The notes beneath the pieces are model-generated. The model made no database searches. It was not told the origin of the DNA and saw only the letters and a list, made by a program, of their open reading frames with translations. Shown piece by piece: positions 1 through 59,639 of a DNA stretch of 64,000 bases. The position numbers and the translations under genes are program-made. How positions within the stretch are numbered: position 1 is the first letter of the stretch; every line of letters starts with the position of its first letter. The stretch covers positions 64,001 through 128,000 of the IMG/VR virus record IMGVR_UViG_3300031951_000015; one strand, 5' to 3'. Source of the DNA: a virus.

Positions 1-199
1 GTGCCGAATCTTTCTTTGCTTGTGCTTCCAGAACTGCTACCTGACGAGTATATTCTGCTTTCTGAAGTTCTGCTTTACCTTGCAGAGATTGTGCCCACAC
101 ATTGTAGAGAGGACCAACCACAGCATTGATAATAAACAGAGAGAGAATAAAGGAAGCACCAATAATTGTGGCGTTCCGCATAGTGTTATCTTCTTTCAT
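1..199 (-). CDS. Membrane-anchored coiled-coil protein (SPFH/membrane-protease-subunit-like), partial at window edge
   Basis: Manual translation MKEDNTMRNATIIGASFILSLFIINAVVGPLYNVWAQSLQGKAELQKAEYTRQVAVLEAQAKKDSA...; ATGA overlap with the 196..378 ORF. Confidence 0.65.
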   Translation of the reverse strand, partial: MKEDNTMRNATIIGASFILSLFIINAVVGPLYNVWAQSLQGKAELQKAEYTRQVAVLEAQAKKDSA

Positions 200-378
200 T
201 TTGAGGAAACTCCAGTAGATTTGAAAATAGCGTTAGCAAGGAAGATGATAGCAAAGTTCTGCCAGAAGGTCAAGGATACACTAAACCAAGACAGAATCAA
301 ACCAAGCAACCACGCCTCAAAGAGAAGTCCAGCAGTGGCAAGGACAAGAACAACAAAGGCAAGACCAAAGATTTTCAT
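196..378 (-). CDS. Small two-TM membrane protein
   Basis: Hydrophobic 60 aa ORF directly downstream of a TATAAT promoter. Confidence 0.7.
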   Translation of the reverse strand: MKIFGLAFVVLVLATAGLLFEAWLLGLILSWFSVSLTFWQNFAIIFLANAIFKSTGVSSK

Positions 379-400
379 TGTAATTTTTGATTACCCACAT

Positions 401-458
401 ATTATAAGGGGTCCCCAGTGCCCTGAGAACCCCCTGTGTGCCAGTTTTAGAACCGTCC
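401..458 (-). promoter_or_regulatory. Early-type promoter: TATAAT -10 plus upstream imperfect palindromic box
   Basis: attata at 401-406; gtgccagtt-N4-aaccgtcc starting at 438 (31 nt gap); the same arrangement recurs at 6117 and 10431. Confidence 0.65.
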
Positions 459-671
459 TCAATCGTCGTAAACTCTACACTCAAGTGCATTAGGGTTTGC
501 ATCACAATAAAGCTCAAGTGGTGTAGGATCGTGAGAATCTTCTGGATGATGATTCTTATATGCTTTTAGTGCTTCTAATTCTTCTTCAGTATGTCTCCTA
601 GACTGAGGAGAAATTGTAGGATCACTCAAAAGTTCTTCATCCTTCTGGATGTGTTGGTCGATGTTATTCAT
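459..671 (-). CDS. cp12: CP12 Calvin-cycle inhibitor (auxiliary metabolic gene)
   Basis: C-terminal PLELYCDANPNALECRVYDD is the canonical CP12 C-terminal Cys-pair motif. Confidence 0.92.
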   Translation of the reverse strand: MNNIDQHIQKDEELLSDPTISPQSRRHTEEELEALKAYKNHHPEDSHDPTPLELYCDANPNALECRVYDD

Positions 672-700
672 GGTTTTGTATCGGGTTGATAATATTTATT

Positions 701-877
701 TTATCGTGGTGTACAATCACCTTTACCTTCCAGTGATCGAACCATAAGTTCAGTGAATTTTTCCATCTTTTCAGCAGAAACTGACTGGGGACGATAAGTT
801 ATAGCATCTTTGAGTGCCACAAGTTCATCCCATTCCTCTTGAGTAAGATTTTTAGGACCAGTTTTTGCTAGAGTCAT
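701..877 (-). CDS. Hypothetical protein (58 aa)
   Basis: Manual translation MTLAKTGPKNLTQEEWDELVALKDAITY...; fills an intergenic gap. Confidence 0.6.
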   Translation of the reverse strand: MTLAKTGPKNLTQEEWDELVALKDAITYRPQSVSAEKMEKFTELMVRSLEGKGDCTPR

Positions 878-961
878 AGGTGTTTTGCGTTGTGTCCCAA
901 TATTAGCATTTCAATACATTAGTATCTAGTAACTTAATGTTTTCTTTGGGATCCTGTTACA

Positions 962-1411
962 CTACTTAATAAACTCATCAAGGGCATCAAGATCATCTTT
1001 AAGTTCTTGTTCCCTTTTCTTGTCGTGATAATAAGACCATAGAGCATTATGAACATCCATCAAATGATCTATCCAAAACCCAGAAGGATAAATTCCAAGA
1101 TCATCCATCAATCCTCTGTGACTGGTTCCCTCACTTTCTGCTTTACACATAATATAGCAGATTGCCTGAACCATATCAAGTTTATCTTCTTCAGAAAGCA
1201 TAAAATACTTTCCTACTGCACGTTGCTTTGCTTCTTCATTTGCCTTTTGCATTTGTTTACAGGCATCAGAGTCCCACCATTCTTTTAGTGCCTTGCCGAG
1301 TTCGTTAGGTTCAGTCATCTTTCCCAAAAATAGTTCCAAAGAAACCAGAGTCTCCTGGTTTACGGTTTTCAAGTTTATCAAGAAGAGAATCAGTCGTTTG
1401 TAGTGTTTCAA
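962..1411 (-). CDS. Hypothetical protein (true start probably the internal MTEPNE)
   Basis: ORF track; coupled to the upstream ORF. Confidence 0.65.
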   Translation of the reverse strand: MKHYKRLILFLINLKTVNQETLVSLELFLGKMTEPNELGKALKEWWDSDACKQMQKANEEAKQRAVGKYFMLSEEDKLDMVQAICYIMCKAESEGTSHRGLMDDLGIYPSGFWIDHLMDVHNALWSYYHDKKREQELKDDLDALDEFIK

Positions 1412-1538
1412 TACGACTAATCATATCAGCAATCACAGAACATACCATAGGACGTTCATTTTTTGCTGCCCAATGTAGAGCATTTCTTAGGCACCCCTCT
1501 GCTTCTTTTAAGTTTTCTTCAACTTGATTTGTCAGCAT
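1311..1538 (-). CDS. Hypothetical cyanophage protein
   Basis: ORF track, coding-strand orientation. Confidence 0.65.
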   Translation of the reverse strand: MLTNQVEENLKEAEGCLRNALHWAAKNERPMVCSVIADMISRIETLQTTDSLLDKLENRKPGDSGFFGTIFGKDD

Positions 1539-1562
1539 TTTAAATATTTCAACTTAATTTCA

Positions 1563-2357
1563 TCATACCATTTCTCTCATGCTTTTGTCAATCCCTCTAT
1601 TATTTTGAAATCTTGAGAGGGCATTATAAGTTGAAATATGCCCTGTAATGAGACATCTCCATTTGATTTTGTTTTGTTTTTTAGCATTTTCACTTCTTTG
1701 TTCTTTTGTCAATCCACATATACCTATCTTAAATTCTTTACAAGTATTTCCTTGTTTTTTACCTCCTGCTATTCTTGCTTTTTTCATATCTTCATCATTC
1801 ATTCCAAATAAACCTTTACCTTCTTCATACAATTTTTTACCTGCTATTTTTCCACCATTACTACATATTTCCATTTTTCTTTCTTCTGCCAATCCATATA
1901 TTCCCACTTTATTAATTTTGTTTATTTTTGATGCCTCTTTACCACCTTTTGAAAGAGATTCTTGTTTTAAATATTTTCTTGCATTTTTTGCATTTTCTAT
2001 TCTTTGGTATTCACTAAATGAATGAATACCCTTTTTACTATCTCTAACACTTATTCCATTCTGCCTTTTTATTGATATAGAATAAGAACCTCCACATCTT
2101 TCATTAAGGCAATAAGAATCATTAAGAACTGGTTTTATCAATCTATCTTCAAGTTTTCTACATTCTTCATAACCTTCATCAGTATAATCAAATACTTCTA
2201 ATATTTGTTTCTTTGGAGTATAAAGTTCCCAACACCACTTATTTGTTATTGGAGAACCCCAGTATTCCTCATCAAATACTTTTTCTTTCTTACTTCCATA
2301 ATAGTAGTAAGGAACTTCTTCAAAGGTAATTTTGTATGTGTAGATACGTGGTTGCAT
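1563..2357 (-). CDS. Free-standing GIY-YIG-like (Seg-type) homing endonuclease with repeated basic GGK modules
   Basis: N-terminal IYTY-x9-YYYG..., YWGS, conserved E and LNE; Lys/Gly-rich repeats; AT-rich; own late promoter. Confidence 0.7.
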   Translation of the reverse strand: MQPRIYTYKITFEEVPYYYYGSKKEKVFDEEYWGSPITNKWCWELYTPKKQILEVFDYTDEGYEECRKLEDRLIKPVLNDSYCLNERCGGSYSISIKRQNGISVRDSKKGIHSFSEYQRIENAKNARKYLKQESLSKGGKEASKINKINKVGIYGLAEERKMEICSNGGKIAGKKLYEEGKGLFGMNDEDMKKARIAGGKKQGNTCKEFKIGICGLTKEQRSENAKKQNKIKWRCLITGHISTYNALSRFQNNRGIDKSMREMV

Positions 2358-2384
2358 AGTTCTACTCTAATTTGCTCGCATATC

Positions 2385-2392
2385 TATTTATA
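2385..2392 (-). promoter_or_regulatory. T4-type late promoter TATAAATA for the endonuclease
   Basis: tatttata on the plus strand 27 nt before the ATG. Confidence 0.8.
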
Positions 2393-2394
2393 TT

Positions 2395-2447
2395 AAAAAG
2401 GAGGGACTTTCACCCCCCCCTCCCGATAAGTGCGAGCAAATCAGGTA
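2395..2447 (-). ncRNA. Putative ~53-nt two-hairpin sRNA (copy A)
   Basis: Preceded by CTAAATA (2452-2458); stem CCUGAU/AUCGGG with loop UUGCUCGCACUU; G-rich/UCCCUCC-UUUUU terminator; homologous to 59550-59601. Confidence 0.6.
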
Positions 2448-2620
2448 ATATTATTTAGTGCCATTTAATCGATCCTCACATTTAGTATAAAAAGTTCCAT
2501 TTACATAACAAGACTTACCTGCTTCATAGTATTTTACCACAGGTATTTGTGTTCTTGGATATTCTACCACATTTTTTACATGACAGAATAGATTATAACC
2601 ACAAATAAGAGTTTCAAGCA

Positions 2621-3214
2621 TCAACACTCATCCATTCCAAGTGGTTTAGACACTTTAGTAAGTGTATAAGATCCATCGCCATTATCAACCCATTCAACCT
2701 GATCACCCTCCTTTAGGTTTGCTGCTTCAAGAAGGTCATCTGGGAAAGTTACAAAACATTCACCACTTGGTTCTAATTCAACAGGAAGTTGCCACTTTAC
2801 AACCTTATCTGCTTTTTCTTGTTTTTCTGCAGCATCACACATTGCATTCAGTTCCTCATCAGTGTACCGAACACTACTTACGGTTGAACCAGTGCTTTCC
2901 CAGAAAGAGTTCCAAGCATCTTTGCATTCGGGTGATGGATCATCTTTATCACAAGTCAGAGGGTTTTTTACATCACCATCACGCAAGTCACCAACAGTTG
3001 CCTGCCAAGCAAGTTTAAACTTCTCATCAAACTCCTCAATGAAGTATCCAAGAAACTCATATGCTGCCATTGTCATGGCCTCTGCACGTTCTTGTTGATT
3101 GTTACTGCAACATTCGTTTGCAACATCAATCATTTCACGGGCAGAGACGACCTTTGCAATGATCATCTCAAGATCATTCATTGTATCCCAAACTTTCTGA
3201 TACTTAATTGCCAT
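2621..3214 (-). CDS. Protein with C-terminal AbrB/MazE (SpoVT)-like DNA-binding domain
   Basis: C-terminal FVTFPDDLLEAANLKEGDQVEWVDNGDGSYTLTK matches the AbrB pattern. Confidence 0.7.
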   Translation of the reverse strand: MAIKYQKVWDTMNDLEMIIAKVVSAREMIDVANECCSNNQQERAEAMTMAAYEFLGYFIEEFDEKFKLAWQATVGDLRDGDVKNPLTCDKDDPSPECKDAWNSFWESTGSTVSSVRYTDEELNAMCDAAEKQEKADKVVKWQLPVELEPSGECFVTFPDDLLEAANLKEGDQVEWVDNGDGSYTLTKVSKPLGMDEC

Positions 3215-3368
3215 GACGTTTGAGTTCTTCCTCAATTGCTTGCTGTACTATAATGGAAATCTCTTTGGATGTCAACCCATTTAACCATTTCCAATTTGGA
3301 TCTTCCTTGTCCCAATCCATTGTGAACGATCCATCCTCGTTCTCTGTTATTTTAAGTGAGTCTTCCAT
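3204..3368 (-). CDS. Hypothetical protein (54 aa)
   Basis: Manual translation MEDSLKITENEDGSFTMDWDKEDPNWKWLN... Confidence 0.6.
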   Translation of the reverse strand: MEDSLKITENEDGSFTMDWDKEDPNWKWLNGLTSKEISIIVQQAIEEELKRHGN

Positions 3369-3568
3369 CACATATCAATATGAATATCATTTATCCAAGT
3401 TTGTTTTTCTGCTTTACGAAGTTTTTTCAATTCTTTCAGCATTTCTTTAATTTCTTGGTATGCTACTTCGGGAGACATCTTATCAGAAATTTCAAGTCCT
3501 ACAATATATTGCACTTTGTCCCCGAATCGGGCAAGTGCTCTTTCAAATTCAGTTAGAGTTTCGTACAT
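3368..3568 (-). CDS. Hypothetical cyanophage protein
   Basis: ORF track; 1-nt overlaps on both sides. Confidence 0.7.
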   Translation of the reverse strand: MYETLTEFERALARFGDKVQYIVGLEISDKMSPEVAYQEIKEMLKELKKLRKAEKQTWINDIHIDM

Positions 3569-3795
3569 TATTTGTTAAGTGAAAATCTATCAAGATTATA
3601 AGGTTCGGATGCAAGGATGTCAATACGTGCTTCAAGACTGTTAAAAATTTCGTATATTGAGTTAGTCGTATTGATATTCTCTTCTTCAAGAACTTTAACA
3701 CGTTGCTCTAACTCAACAACTCTGGTATAGAGTTCATCAATCAAAACAGGATCTTCTAGTCCCCATTTCTTTTGAAACCAATTTGTTCCAATCAT
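3568..3795 (-). CDS. Hypothetical coiled-coil protein
   Basis: ORF track; translational coupling. Confidence 0.7.
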   Translation of the reverse strand: MIGTNWFQKKWGLEDPVLIDELYTRVVELEQRVKVLEEENINTTNSIYEIFNSLEARIDILASEPYNLDRFSLNK

Positions 3796-3956
3796 AATAC
3801 ACCTACAGATTTAAGATAGTTTCGATATCCCATATATCTTCTCATATTTGGTTGATCTTTAACATCTAGTTGATGACAGATCTCACAGTAACATAACCAC
3901 TCATACCATGGCGTAGTAGGATCTAAAACATGATATGGATGATCAGAGTTTTCCAC
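3792..3956 (-). CDS. Hypothetical protein with CxCxxC motif (GTG start)
   Basis: Manual translation ...DHPYHVLDPTTPWYEWLCYCEICHQLDV... Confidence 0.55.
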   Translation of the reverse strand: MENSDHPYHVLDPTTPWYEWLCYCEICHQLDVKDQPNMRRYMGYRNYLKSVGVL

Positions 3957-4149
3957 CTACAGTTCCTTCATGAGTTTTGGATTCAGGGAAACCTTCCTGC
4001 CGTCCTTTAAGAACATAACGGGTTGCTGATACACATTGCTCTTCAGTGAGAGACGTGACCAGTCCGTTACCATCTTTGTCGGTAGAATCCCAGAGTCCAT
4101 ACTTTTTTTGCTCAACATAGAAGCAATCATCAATCAGTTTTTTTTCCAT
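3943..4149 (-). CDS. Hypothetical cyanophage protein (C-terminal VGGKL)
   Basis: ORF track. Confidence 0.7.
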   Translation of the reverse strand: MEKKLIDDCFYVEQKKYGLWDSTDKDGNGLVTSLTEEQCVSATRYVLKGRQEGFPESKTHEGTVGGKL

Positions 4150-4294
4150 TTTTCAAATCAGGATGAGGTGCATAGAGTGGTCCTTCATAATTACCAGCAA
4201 ACAAAGATAGATTCTTGACTGCTTCTACAACAGCAGGAGTTTCTTCCCAGTTCCACTCATTACCATGCTTATCAACAAAAGTTCTAATTGTCAT
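4130..4294 (-). CDS. Hypothetical protein (54 aa)
   Basis: Manual translation MTIRTFVDKHGNEWNWEETPAVVEAVK... Confidence 0.6.
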   Translation of the reverse strand: MTIRTFVDKHGNEWNWEETPAVVEAVKNLSLFAGNYEGPLYAPHPDLKNGKKTD

Positions 4295-4457
4295 ATTTGT
4301 AACTTAATTGAATGTCTTTCTTTTTAAGGTTGTAGCGATCAATGTGCTTTTTACGATGTTCTTCTGTTTGAAAGTAACATTTACGTGTTTCTTTTCCATC
4401 CTTATGAATCAACTTCCATGGAAATTGATCAAACGGAAACTCTTCGCTGTAATCCAT
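4284..4457 (-). CDS. Hypothetical protein (57 aa)
   Basis: Manual translation MDYSEEFPFDQFPWKLIHKDGKETRKCYFQTEEH... Confidence 0.6.
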   Translation of the reverse strand: MDYSEEFPFDQFPWKLIHKDGKETRKCYFQTEEHRKKHIDRYNLKKKDIQLSYKYDN

Positions 4458-4618
4458 CAGGTAGGTTGCTCAACACGTTGAGTATACACGGCATCAAACA
4501 ATTCGTCAAGCACCTCACCACAGGTATGATACTCTTTACTGTTCAGCACGGTCTTATCATACTGATAACGACGCACAGCAGTGTAAATGAGTTTATATTG
4601 TTCAGGTGTAAAGTTCAT
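4457..4618 (-). CDS. Hypothetical protein (53 aa)
   Basis: Manual translation MNFTPEQYKLIYTAVRRYQYDK...; coupled at both ends. Confidence 0.6.
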   Translation of the reverse strand: MNFTPEQYKLIYTAVRRYQYDKTVLNSKEYHTCGEVLDELFDAVYTQRVEQPT

Positions 4619-4797
4619 TCAGTTCCTCCATAAAGTCGTTGTCCTTCTTCATATCCTAGTTGATATGCCGCTTGTAACCACTTGATGATTGCTCCGTAAT
4701 CATTTGTTTTAGCAGCATAATCAAAGTCATCATAGAACCGCTCAGAGCGGAATGAGAACCCTTCCATCTCTTCAAACCAATCATTAAAATTAGTCAT
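4615..4797 (-). CDS. Hypothetical protein
   Basis: ORF track. Confidence 0.65.
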   Translation of the reverse strand: MTNFNDWFEEMEGFSFRSERFYDDFDYAAKTNDYGAIIKWLQAAYQLGYEEGQRLYGGTE

Positions 4798-5134
4798 AAA
4801 GATGCTGTTCGTGTTGCAACTTATCTAGGTGATGATAAATTGTCTGTTGTGAATACTGAAACTCTTCAAATCGTTGTGGTTTCTTCTGCTCCATTCGAGT
4901 GAGCATATTGATCCAATCATAATGAGTATTGATTACCCAACCATAATGTGCATCATTCATTTTAGTTCAAGTGTTTGGGTTTTTCTGTATCAAATTGGTA
5001 GAACTTTACATCTTTCATATCAAGACACATACGGATAGTTTCGTGCTCTCGGTGCTCTCTAGCAGTGCCTTTATATAATGCTCTGCGTTGGTATGCACAG
5101 CACCAGATGTTATAGAATATTTTAGATTTCTCAT

Positions 5135-10878: not shown

Positions 10879-11155
10879 CTTTCAACTTCATATAATCTCT
10901 TGCACGGTAAAACAATTCATCACGCCAGTTACGACCACAAATATCAAAAGTGAAACCTAACCGACCAATAGAAAATAGAAAGGAGAATAGTCTTCCATAT
11001 CCCATAGAGATTTGAAGATAAGGAAATTCAATCCATTTCCCATACTCTCCATAATCAAAAGCAAGTTGAAGTAGTGAATATCGTCTTCCAGTACAAAGAG
11101 TCATATACCATTCTTTTCCGTAGTCGTTTCTTTCGCCAAATTGAATGAGTTTCAT
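10871..11155 (-). CDS. Hypothetical protein, paralog of 8641..8904
   Basis: Shared DYGKEW motif. Confidence 0.7.
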   Translation of the reverse strand: MKLIQFGERNDYGKEWYMTLCTGRRYSLLQLAFDYGEYGKWIEFPYLQISMGYGRLFSFLFSIGRLGFTFDICGRNWRDELFYRARDYMKLKDG

Positions 11156-11157
11156 AA

Positions 11158-11361
11158 TCAGTAAGGTAACGACTTCAGACCATCTAATACTTCTTGGAAT
11201 CTTTCGGCACGACTCTTGTGGTGCTCTACATTCTCTTCCAATACACCTACAATATCGTCCAGCACAACATCCAGAGAGGCATCAGTATCAAAGTATTTCT
11301 GGATTGCTTCGGCAAGGTATCTCCTCCGACTCCATTCCATACTATAAGGACGATAATTCAT
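11158..11361 (-). CDS. Hypothetical cyanophage protein
   Basis: ORF track; sigma70 promoter upstream. Confidence 0.7.
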   Translation of the reverse strand: MNYRPYSMEWSRRRYLAEAIQKYFDTDASLDVVLDDIVGVLEENVEHHKSRAERFQEVLDGLKSLPY

Positions 11362-27046: not shown

Positions 27047-27328
27047 TAGGAGCGGCGAGACTTGAACTCGCATAGCCGAAGCCGACGGATTTTCTTACCA
27101 CTACGACTTTCGCCGCCTCATAGAGTTTGTGGTCTGGACTATACCTTCACCATATCTTGTGATTTAGGTGCTCCCCGTCTAGTCTCTACACCTTCATCTT
27201 TCGATGCTTGGCTCGGTATTGCCATTTTACAGGTTTCACCGAATTTGAGGAGTTACACTCATGAGGTTTCCCAAATGAGGCTCAATTTTACATAAGTCCG
27301 TTGTGTCTACCAATTCCACCACGCTCCC
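27047..27328 (-). tRNA. trnL: tRNA-Leu(UAA) interrupted by a group I intron
   Basis: 5' exon GGGAGCGTGGTGGAATTGGTAGACACAACGGACTT (27328-27294) + 3' exon AAAATCCGTCGG...GCGAGTTCAAGTCTCGCCGCTCCTA (27093-27047); anticodon stem ACGGA/TCCGT. Confidence 0.9.
27094..27293 (-). ncRNA. Group I intron (trnL-UAA type), 200 nt, no ORF
   Basis: Inserted after U34, ends in G; ATTGAGCC internal guide, AAATTCGGTGAAACC, GGCAATACCGAGCCAAG, GTGTAGAGACTAGACGG, AAGGTATAGTCC core elements. Confidence 0.88.
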
Positions 27329-37717: not shown

Positions 37718-37738
37718 CTACAAATCAGATAAAATTAT

Positions 37739-38557
37739 TTATCTATACTTTTGCAGATCCGTCCCGTAAAGAGACTCATATAAAGTTTGACCAGCAGGTA
37801 ACAATTCTACACCATTTGAAGGAATAGATCCAGGAGATCTTGGAACTAATCTTGGTTTTGGATCTCTTTGTGGTTGTTGTGGAGGTTGCCCGACTTCGTT
37901 ATTATTATCAATATTCTCAAAAATATCTTTACTATAAGATTTACCAACTACATAACGCTCAATTTTAAATGTTGCTTGCATAGACATCACGTTTGATTGT
38001 GAGTATGAAACTGGAATTGATGCAATATTATAAGGATACAAACCGATAAAAGTATATTCCAATTCTCTCTTATAATCACGATCAAATTTAATAATACGAG
38101 TGCGATTTGATTTGTAATATTCCGGATACTGCATTCTAGTAAAATATCCTTGATCAACATTATTATTGATTGGATTTAATTGACTATCAATTGGATTAGT
38201 AGATCCACTTGCGATGAATTCCATCCAATGTTCAAGAAACTTCAAGGTTTTATAATTTTTATCGACATAAAATTCTAGACTAATATCTTGATAGACTCTA
38301 CGATGAGCAAAATTTTCTGTGATTCCAATATAGTTTCCAGAAACTTCTGCTACTGAAAGTTGTGTTGTTGGAAGAGCAGCATTATTACATAAAAGTCCAA
38401 CATCTTCTGCAATGAATCGACGATCAATTCCTTTTCTACTTAGATAAGATAATAATTGTGGAGGAAGACCACCAAACTTTACTTCATAATGAGAAGTTTG
38501 AGCAAGGTTAGTGAATAATGGTTTTATATCCGATATTCTACGGGGTCTAACTGCCAC
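37739..38557 (-). CDS. Tail-tube-like baseplate protein (gp54/gp19 family), GTG start
   Basis: C..A.LP, L.FYVD, F.E.W, Y.F..LYP tube-fold motifs; divergent from gp4. Confidence 0.75.
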   Translation of the reverse strand: MAVRPRRISDIKPLFTNLAQTSHYEVKFGGLPPQLLSYLSRKGIDRRFIAEDVGLLCNNAALPTTQLSVAEVSGNYIGITENFAHRRVYQDISLEFYVDKNYKTLKFLEHWMEFIASGSTNPIDSQLNPINNNVDQGYFTRMQYPEYYKSNRTRIIKFDRDYKRELEYTFIGLYPYNIASIPVSYSQSNVMSMQATFKIERYVVGKSYSKDIFENIDNNNEVGQPPQQPQRDPKPRLVPRSPGSIPSNGVELLPAGQTLYESLYGTDLQKYR

Positions 38558-49122: not shown

Positions 49123-49686
49123 TCATATGATATTAAAAGATAAACTAATTTTTTCTCTATCAGTAGGTCGAGTTGCATGAAAAGTTGAACTCATAAAAAT
49201 CAATATTCTTCCATCTAAAGTTTCATAATTATAATTTTCGAAAGAATTATTATCTTGGAAATTTGGTAGTATTGGTTGATGATCTACAATTGGTGACTTT
49301 ACGTAAAAATCTGCCAGTCCACTACCAATTATATAAACAACCCCAGATAATAAAGAATTGTGATGAATGTGAGTTTCTTGATACATACCTGGTTGATAAT
49401 AATTTAACCAACTACTTTTAATTTGATATGATTGATTCATATCAAATTTCATATATTTACAATATTCCTTTATTGATTCTTCTACTGATTTTTTTACTCT
49501 ATAAAAATCAGGTAATTCTAAAATGTTACTATTATTTTTTATAGTAGAAATGCACTTCGATTGAAATGCATAGTCTCCCTGTTCAAAACATATTCTTTTT
49601 GCTATGATTTTTATGCTTTCGCTGATAAGTTTTGGATTATCTTTTTTATAAATGATTGTAGGAAACAATGTATCAAAGTTACTCAT
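49123..49686 (-). CDS. Putative 2OG-Fe(II) oxygenase (TIGR02466-like)
   Basis: SW.N, HxH...SGVVY, F.S..H, SLSFN. Confidence 0.85.
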   Translation of the reverse strand: MSNFDTLFPTIIYKKDNPKLISESIKIIAKRICFEQGDYAFQSKCISTIKNNSNILELPDFYRVKKSVEESIKEYCKYMKFDMNQSYQIKSSWLNYYQPGMYQETHIHHNSLLSGVVYIIGSGLADFYVKSPIVDHQPILPNFQDNNSFENYNYETLDGRILIFMSSTFHATRPTDREKISLSFNII

Positions 49687-58887: not shown

Positions 58888-59514
58888 TTATTTATTGGTT
58901 TGTTTAGACCATCTTTTATTGGCAGCATCACTTAATTTTTTTCTTGTTTCCTCTGTAATATTGCAAATACGTCCCAATACAAGTCCTTCAGATAGTTTTT
59001 CTTGAACTTTTATTCTCATTATTCTATGATTCTTTTTTGTTTTTGGGTCATACATCCAAACTAAATCCAGTTTTTTAAGTGTTTGTTTTCTTTTTATTGA
59101 ACTTTCTTCTGTAAAAACTTGAAGTGCTCTTGCTCTTCTAATCTTCTCTCTTGCACTTTCATTTAGAAAAAATTTACCTTTTTTAACTTTACTCATTTTT
59201 TCTTTTGTTTCTTGAGATGTAACTGCACCCTCTCTCGTAAATTTAGTCGAAGTTTGTTTTGCCCTATTAGCAAAATGTGAGTTAAGAGCAATATCATAAA
59301 AATTATGCAACTTTATTTCTGCACGAATTGCATCCTTTCTTGTTTTAAACGTTTCGATAATTACTTTTTGAGTGGGATTAAATGTTTTATCGTGAAATGA
59401 TCCAAAATAGTTTATATCTTGTTCCGGTAAGCAATTGCAACTTCTACACCCAATATACCCCCTACCCCACTCTTCATAAGAATAATAGGTATAATGATAC
59501 TTCTTATTAGACAT
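58888..59514 (-). CDS. GIY-YIG-like homing endonuclease with NUMOD3-like motifs
   Basis: HYTY-x9-YIG.R, YFGS, AEI.LH, F.N.A; SQETKEKMS and TEETRKKLS. Confidence 0.82.
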   Translation of the reverse strand: MSNKKYHYTYYSYEEWGRGYIGCRSCNCLPEQDINYFGSFHDKTFNPTQKVIIETFKTRKDAIRAEIKLHNFYDIALNSHFANRAKQTSTKFTREGAVTSQETKEKMSKVKKGKFFLNESAREKIRRARALQVFTEESSIKRKQTLKKLDLVWMYDPKTKKNHRIMRIKVQEKLSEGLVLGRICNITEETRKKLSDAANKRWSKQTNK

Positions 59515-59539
59515 TTCTTTACCATTAGGACCGCATATG

Positions 59540-59547
59540 TATTTATA
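59540..59547 (-). promoter_or_regulatory. Late promoter TATAAATA for the endonuclease
   Basis: tatttata on the plus strand. Confidence 0.8.
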
Positions 59548-59549
59548 TT

Positions 59550-59601
59550 AAAAAGGAGGGACTTACACCCTCCTCCTGATAAGATTGCGGTCCATCAGGT
59601 A
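59550..59601 (-). ncRNA. Putative ~52-nt two-hairpin sRNA (copy B)
   Basis: ATAAATA promoter at 59606-59612; stem CCUGAU/AUCAGG with loop GGACCGCAAUCUU; GGAGGG/CCCUCC-UUUUU terminator. Confidence 0.62.
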
Positions 59602-59615
59602 TTAATATTTATCAT

Positions 59616-59639
59616 AAAAAAAGAGGGGTAGAACCCCTC
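59616..59639 (-). terminator. Intrinsic terminator
   Basis: GAGGGG-ttcta-CCCCTC followed by T7. Confidence 0.82.

Follow-up and report, generated by a model that had tools for sequence, protein, structure and literature searches.

How is a late nuclease gene controlled when a segment complementary to the 5' end of its own mRNA lies upstream of it on the same strand, behind a promoter-like box and in front of a terminator-like hairpin? The question was raised by a stretch of 64,000 nucleotides (the window), which represents bases 64001-128000 of a 174,667-bp IMG/VR virus record. PHROG matches to a baseplate hub/tail lysozyme, a gp32-type single-strand DNA-binding protein and a helicase place this genome among the T4-like myoviruses. 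A preliminary description of the window had interpreted the arrangement as a small RNA that belongs to its own nuclease, acting either as an antisense repressor or, more speculatively, as a short guide bound by the protein. According to the analysis presented here, the cassette is a portable 5' control unit of ~110 nt that heads free-standing homing-endonuclease genes in a freshwater lineage of T4-like cyanophages.

The first copy, cassette A, occupies positions 2352-2477 on the minus strand, which also carries all of the genes around it, and consists, in order, of a late-promoter-type box (P1), the sequence ACCUG, an arm displayed in a loop, a terminator, a second late-type box (P2), the complement of the arm, a Shine-Dalgarno region and the ATG (Table 1). 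All of the elements that had been described for this copy were found in place, and the 11-nt complementarity between arm and leader proved to be exact. The stretch from the second arm to the AUG at 2357 reads UAGAGUAGAACU. What the earlier reading missed is that the pairing reaches the Shine-Dalgarno region and that two structures compete for one 5' strand, as ACCUG can pair either with AUCGGG, forming hairpin H1, or with the leader sequence UAG(A)GU, forming part of a long helix.

Several further observations concern the surroundings of cassette A and the window at large. The gene upstream of the cassette (2621-3235, minus strand) encodes a protein of 204 aa whose C-terminal domain is of the MazE/AbrB type (SpoVT-AbrB; Pfam PF04014, E 1.7e-5). 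Contigs of lake-phage relatives in three runs appear to join position 1311 to 2619, which omits the small ORF 1311-1538, the nuclease gene, cassette A and 160 nt upstream (window 1312-2618); this join was read from DNA contigs of four lake runs set against window 1-5000, across short sides of 27 nt, and its boundary is uncertain. Elsewhere, a phage tRNA-Leu(UAA) gene (27047-27328, minus strand) apparently carries a group I intron in its anticodon loop (27117-27303; Rfam RF00028, 58.5 bits) and directly follows tRNA-Ile(UAU) and tRNA-Met genes; its exon halves were read by eye, and ARAGORN made no call for it.

Table 1. Elements of cassettes A and B and the genes below them, in window coordinates
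Feature	Position	Strand	Basis or remark
P1 of cassette A, late-promoter-type box CTAAATA	2452..2458	-	then five bases before ACCUG
ACCUG, predicted +1 of the P1 RNA and anti-Shine-Dalgarno strand	2442..2446	-	covariation with both partners
Arm 1 of cassette A, AUUUGCUCGCA, variable specificity arm in the H1 loop	2431..2441	-	then CUU
H1 3' strand, AUCGGG	2422..2427	-	fold of the 52-nt RNA
Predicted intrinsic terminator: G-rich stem, UGAAAGU loop, CCCUCC, U5	2395..2421	-	sequence and fold
P2 of cassette A, perfect T4-type late box TATAAATA	2385..2392	-	AA before, GAUA after
Arm 2 of cassette A, UGCGAGCAAAU, exact complement of arm 1	2370..2380	-	predicted nuclease mRNA +1 = G2379
UAGAGU, Shine-Dalgarno region, pairs with ACCUG, A2366 bulged	2364..2369	-	duplex structure
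Nuclease-like ORF under cassette A, 264 aa	1563..2357	-	family N-terminus PRIYxYKITFEEVPYYYYG
Cassette B	59507..59631	-	CM score 94.3 bits
P1 of cassette B, ATAAATA	59606..59612	-	sequence and fold
ACCUG of cassette B	59596..59600	-	sequence and fold
Arm 1 of cassette B	59586..59593	-	sequence and fold
Predicted terminator of cassette B	59550..59573	-	sequence and fold
P2 of cassette B	59540..59547	-	sequence and fold
Arm 2 of cassette B	59528..59535	-	sequence and fold
ATG of cassette B	59514	-	sequence and fold
Homing endonuclease under cassette B, 208 aa	58888..59514	-	phrog_314, E 2.6e-13; NUMOD3 motif

The second copy of the scaffold that had been reported from the window, with a different loop and a matching different leader, is present as cassette B, whose arms (GGACCGCA/UGCGGUCC) form 8 bp and are unlike those of copy A. 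Right before its P1, cassette B has a separate intrinsic terminator (59614-59638, minus strand), unique among 108 upstream contexts; read-through from upstream should be minimal at this copy, and RNA with the arm would come mainly from P1. A covariance model (CM) made from 76 cassette copies identified three cassettes in the 174,667-bp genome, the third of which heads an HNH gene 6 kb past the window, as well as 105-119 cassettes in the phage contigs fetched from lake phages. Two other candidates in the window were discarded: a pattern match with three mismatches at 37724-37742 is merely a late promoter before a structural gene, and a CM match at 49508-49631 (17.9 bits, E 0.63) is no cassette. 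An exact 25-mer of the scaffold matched 13 viral contigs, a leader-anchored pattern at least 118, and a metagenome scan for the hairpin-terminator core yielded at least 120 contigs. The ends of these core-bearing contigs did not cluster at the terminator or at the +1, in a set in which RNA and DNA assemblies were not told apart.

S-SRM01 (Kyanoviridae), a freshwater phage of Synechococcus that is in culture, has six cassettes; it was the sole matching record when three cassette variants were compared by blastn with ~50,000 phage genomes; a megablast of window 1500-3300 against the phage collection matched nothing. In S-SRM01, the RefSeq start of the 'homing endonuclease' gp297 (NC_070963.1 192466-193167; positions 1557-2258 of our locus L130) is a GTG within the terminator loop of the cassette; judging by the conserved leader, translation probably starts instead at the ATG at locus position 1612. 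Another genome (IMGVR_UViG_3300007735_000887) contains six cassettes within 14 kb, each in front of a different nuclease gene and all with different arms, and this region is a dense island of homing-endonuclease genes.

The 5' part of the cassette and its leader form a helix of ~16 bp in which ACCUG and arm 1 pair with arm 2 and UAG(A)GU. Among 92 distinct sequences, 97.4% of the cells of this helix and the terminator stem were paired, a value obtained from an alignment fitted to the structure model, and changes on both sides were found in 20 of the 21 pairs (406 cells). When the partners were slid by one to three columns as a control, 39-56% of the cells were paired, and none of 500 shuffles matched the observed pairing and covariation values. 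In an RNAduplex test, which is independent of the model, the 5' part paired with its own leader at a mean of -22.8 kcal/mol compared with -10.0 kcal/mol for non-cognate leaders. The arms themselves are diverse, with 42 distinct 10-nt strings among 78 distinct cassettes, and arm 1 of copy A has arm 2 as its sole perfect target in the genome, just as each of the other arms matches only its own leader. The covariation of loop and leader that the two copies in the window had suggested is also seen in their homologs, and together with the stronger cognate duplexes it supports pairing at the RNA level.

An inverted repeat that flanks a promoter, within a cassette that is shuffled between genes, might be expected of an element that functions as DNA, for example a recombination repeat, a cruciform or an operator. 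Across the helix, however, 127 G.U cells were observed versus 8 A.C cells, which indicates strand-specific pairing of the sense-strand RNA rather than a DNA repeat or an RNA from the opposite strand, and the arms lack a fixed sequence for a protein to read. We consider a DNA-level element extremely improbable. The helix, its strand and its covariation are established by these data.

Closer examination of the helix revealed that it does not end with the variable arms. The near-invariant ACCUG, whose ACCU we take to resemble the 3' end of 16S rRNA, as would fit an anti-Shine-Dalgarno strand, pairs with UAG(A)GU located 5-12 nt before the AUG. This part of the helix was 99.1% paired with changes on both sides in all six pairs, and even the rare variants are matched (GCUU with AAAGC and AUCUG with (C)AGAU). 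In fold predictions, the 107-nt read-through RNA from ACCUG to codon 5 adopted the long helix around the terminator hairpin (-41.2 kcal/mol, z -6.2), and the P2 leader alone, from arm 2 on, was essentially open (-5.6 kcal/mol, z -0.3). Since the invariant ACCUG carries the pairing on to the Shine-Dalgarno region, the element has the properties of a mask over the ribosome-binding site, and it is very probable that some mask of this kind operates at the RNA level.

Both boxes are placed in a precise relation to this helix. The P1 box was kept in 89 of the 92 distinct cassettes and the P2 box TATAAATA was found between the arms in 91 of them; the pairwise difference was 0.01 for the P1 box and 0.00 for P2, compared with 0.72 for the flank directly upstream of P1. 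Five bases and then a purine follow the P1 box in 83 of 89 cassettes, with a purine always present as the first base at the ACCUG position, and follow the P2 box in 81 of 92; a purine as the sixth base after the P2 box was counted in 90 of 92. In T4 late promoters, the promoter element is placed at -13 to -6, and a box followed by five bases and a purine accordingly marks the site where such a promoter would start. The helix begins on the P1 purine; at its other end the P2 purine forms the last pair that is well conserved, and the next pair outward is the least conserved (13 unpaired cells). This conservation and geometry of both boxes is likewise established here. In the phage genome, NATAAATA and CTAAATA occurred within 60 nt of ORF starts and were strongly biased towards the sense strand (45 sense vs 7 antisense and 18 vs 3, respectively), whereas the controls GTAAATA and TTAAATA exhibited neither the bias nor such placement; from these counts, ATAAATA and CTAAATA appear to behave as promoters in this genome. 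T4 late promoters consist of a -10-type element only (PMC7892883).

The terminator stem between the arms was 99% paired, and all six of its pairs had changed on both sides. Only 1 of the 108 upstream contexts, that of copy B, has a terminator of its own, so transcripts arriving from upstream would normally end inside the cassette and carry the arm at their 3' end. Hairpin H1 (CCUG:CAGG; in copy A CCUGAU:AUCGGG) encloses the arm in a loop of ~15 nt and was 97.9% paired in a structure-aware alignment, with changes on both sides in 3 of 4 pairs; its 3' strand covaries with the 5' strand as well as with the Shine-Dalgarno partner. Because H1 and the long helix share the same bases, H1 can matter only while the 5' part is unpaired with the leader. 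The predicted 52-nt RNA (2446 to ~2395) folds as H1 plus terminator (-19.4 kcal/mol), and from the conserved geometry of P1 and the terminator the existence of a separate RNA of ~52 nt may reasonably be supposed. More generally, it is from sequence and fold that we infer promoter activity, termination, the small RNA itself, repression and the direction of regulation; a search of sequencing runs for window 1400-3400 yielded no RNA run that contains this DNA.

A search for split cassettes, in which the 5' half lies apart from its target, used a strict pattern that recognised just 13 full cassettes and gave one real candidate. This decayed half cassette (locus L114, ~11100-11310, minus strand) has P1, GCCUG, arm and CAGG intact; its terminator is truncated, P2, arm 2 and a nuclease gene are missing, and the target is absent from the 13-kb locus. 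An endonuclease gene was probably lost here and left this remnant behind.

The same structures could serve a mask that acts in cis only, as in T4 I-TevI. The 5' arm would then act solely on those transcripts, begun upstream or at P1, that continue past the terminator; mRNAs started at P2, which lack the 5' arm, would be translated, and the short P1 RNA would be an inert by-product or P1 inactive. The layout is that of the T4 and Aeh1 cases, with a late promoter between the arms and the ribosome-binding site in the 3' arm (PMC2988022), and the read-through RNA does fold strongly into the long helix. A mask confined to cis, however, leaves unexplained why P1 is conserved to the same degree as P2 with its +1 on the first paired base, why a terminator between the arms removes most of the transcripts on which the mask would act, and why H1, a competitor of the mask, is kept with compensatory changes. 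The conservation of P1 could also reflect another role, such as that of a recombination boundary of the cassette. We regard action in cis only as a real possibility that falls somewhat short of an even chance.

The genes headed by the cassette provided evidence on what the arms are not. For the ORF under cassette A, Pfam and PHROG profiles as well as a profile search of the PDB were without a match, and its AlphaFold model was poor (pLDDT 48.7). Six relatives share 46-60% identity with it, and in its C-terminal half it shows homology to the DNA-binding tails that homing endonucleases of the copy B type carry (NUMOD3; hhalign probability 99.8%). The term 'GIY-YIG-like', used for this ORF in the preliminary description, expresses no more than a resemblance: only the likeness of its N-terminus (IYxYKI...YYYYG) and the homology to the NUMOD3-type tail point that way. 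Overall, the cassette-headed ORFs encode proteins of 140-330 aa that include HNH_3+AP2, HNH, GIY-YIG, NUMOD3 and Endonuclease-VII-like types, and the one scaffold is common to at least nine unrelated N-terminal families. Identical arm alleles were found before up to three unrelated families (HNH, GIY-YIG and zinc-finger-type proteins), and the protein family of copy A is preceded by at least seven different arms.

These distributions bear directly on the suggestion that the nuclease binds the arm as a short guide or recognition tag, within an RNA/protein pair specific to each nuclease. The only point in its favor is the physical linkage of cassette and nuclease gene. Since unrelated nucleases share an arm and one family uses many, we reject the guide, which we consider highly improbable, and view the cassette as a portable leader that is shuffled between genes. 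The earlier interpretation thus holds for the RNA pairing of loop arm and leader and for the promoter box and terminator that the arm has of its own, but neither for a protein guide nor for a pairing that is specific to each nuclease.

Sequence divergence of the arms (0.43-0.45) was within the range of neutral spacers (0.41-0.56). Diversifying selection on the arms was not seen in this comparison, and as they diverge no faster than spacers, nothing demands selection for specificity in trans. Both this neutral drift and the sharing of the same arms by many nucleases are in line with a mask acting in cis only. The orthogonality proposed for the two copies in the window would, in its strongest form, mean dozens of mutually orthogonal pairs of small RNA and leader, each ~52-nt RNA silencing its own mRNA in trans while selection bars cross-reaction, so that rival nucleases, whether they share a phage or arrive with co-infecting phages, are each under separate control. 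None of the 82 ordered pairs of co-resident cassettes cross-paired at -16 kcal/mol or below, compared with 7.6% between records (co-residence permutation P ~0.012 at -16 kcal/mol and 0.087 at -18), but orthologous cassettes from related phages are among the between-record pairs, which confounds this within-genome comparison and makes it a lead only. Orthogonality under selection is therefore not upheld by these data, and we consider such a system of independent pairs unlikely.

The model that we favor combines an RNA acting in trans with a mask in cis. Its 5' strand would be made up of ACCUG, a mimic of the 16S rRNA 3' end, and the freely variable arm of 8-11 nt, and its 3' strand of the first bases of the late nuclease mRNA together with the Shine-Dalgarno region; formation of the helix would conceal the ribosome-binding site and leave the nuclease untranslated. 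For the trans route, transcription from the late P1 would start at ACCUG and stop at the internal terminator, and the resulting RNA of ~52 nt would display the arm in its small hairpin and base-pair with the P2 mRNA at its unstructured 5' end. Transcripts of upstream genes that end at the cassette terminator would carry the arm as well. For the cis route, the mask would form on the smaller share of transcripts that escape termination. As P1 and P2 belong to the same late class, mask and target would be made together, which suggests damping rather than a temporal switch. The benefit of producing both simultaneously is not obvious and counts against the combined model, as does H1, which is short (4-6 bp) and mostly invariant. 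We hold the chances of this two-route model to be even.

The helix ends on the predicted +1 of P2, so that the duplex would cap the 5' end of the mRNA, and the small RNA might accordingly have a positive or stabilising effect by shielding the P2 mRNA from decay that depends on its 5' end or by directing its processing. The duplex also covers the covarying Shine-Dalgarno region, however, which predicts repression, and homing endonucleases are generally held low (PMC2988022). Stabilisation by the small RNA appears improbable to us.

To persist in phage genomes, homing endonucleases must stay near-silent. The known solution is a bespoke hairpin for each gene, whereas the cassette is a standard, movable part of ~110 nt that any nuclease gene can acquire and that joins promoter, mask, terminator, second promoter and leader in one module. 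If its first half is released as RNA, it would represent an abundant and uncatalogued class of phage small RNA as well as a natural set of at least 40 matched riboregulator pairs on one scaffold, which could appeal to synthetic biologists. In annotation the cassette has a practical use, since it shows at which codon nuclease genes such as gp297 truly start; it also breaks metagenome assemblies, and a cultured system is at hand with S-SRM01 on Synechococcus sp. KCZYC6.

No cassette family was detected in Rfam at gathering thresholds, the best sub-threshold match being Termite-leu (19.4 bits vs 51). The genome paper of S-SRM01 does not mention promoters, terminators or the cassette, and a published description of it was not found in the open-access literature. 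Several known systems nevertheless share individual features with it. The PeSL cassettes of T4-like phages combine sigma-70-type early or Mot middle promoters with a single stem-loop (PMC2839356, PMC4122927). They are similar in being composite modules of promoter and stem-loop that flank variable genes and are apparently shuffled as units, but the boxes of the cassette described here are of the T4 late type without a conserved -35 region, and PeSLs have no late boxes, no complementarity of arm and leader and no masking of the ribosome-binding site. In cyanophage S-PM2, CfrI, said to have been described by Millard et al. in 2010, is reportedly a long opposite-strand RNA over an endonuclease gene and psbA; it is likewise a non-coding cyanophage RNA tied to a homing-endonuclease gene, with an architecture unlike that of the cassette.

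Type I toxin-antitoxin systems with a neighbouring trans-encoded small RNA include tisB/istR-1 and zorO/orzO. By analogy, a short RNA beside a harmful gene would pair with the 5' UTR and limit translation in the cassette as well. In contrast to these systems, the 'toxin' would be a nuclease of 200-300 aa instead of a small membrane peptide, the RNA is encoded upstream and co-oriented, and the cassette exhibits no sign of differential stability or addiction.

In T4 I-TevI, I-TevII, I-TevIII and segB as well as in Aeh1 mobE, a hairpin that sequesters the RBS encloses a late promoter, and T4 soc, e, 39, 25 and 26 are further examples of RBS-sequestering hairpins; in such masks early transcripts hide the RBS, and the inner late promoter provides a translatable mRNA (PMC2988022). 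The cassette resembles them in the homing-endonuclease genes it serves, in the T4-like phage background, in a stable helix over the Shine-Dalgarno region and, as far as sequence can tell, in a late promoter between the arms with the 3' arm beginning at the predicted +1. It differs in that a late-type box of its own precedes the 5' arm, with the predicted +1 on the first paired base, so that the arm would not derive solely from early or middle read-through, in the covarying terminator between the arms, in the competing hairpin that displays the arm, and in its portability, as dozens of arm alleles are spread over nine or more nuclease families.

The specificity alleles of the c4 RNA in phages P1 and P7 differ by matched changes in regulator and target. 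The cassette shares with c4 the position of the regulator upstream on the strand of its target, pairing at the translation start, and matched allele changes. The location of c4 upstream of and on the same strand as its target goes back to Citron and Schuster (1990), as cited in PMC8198154. c4 is excised from the transcript of an operon and regulates an antirepressor of a temperate phage, whereas the cassette is predicted to produce an RNA from its own promoter to its own terminator and to control nucleases in a lytic phage. c4 is the nearest known example of an antisense RNA whose gene lies upstream of its target in the same orientation.
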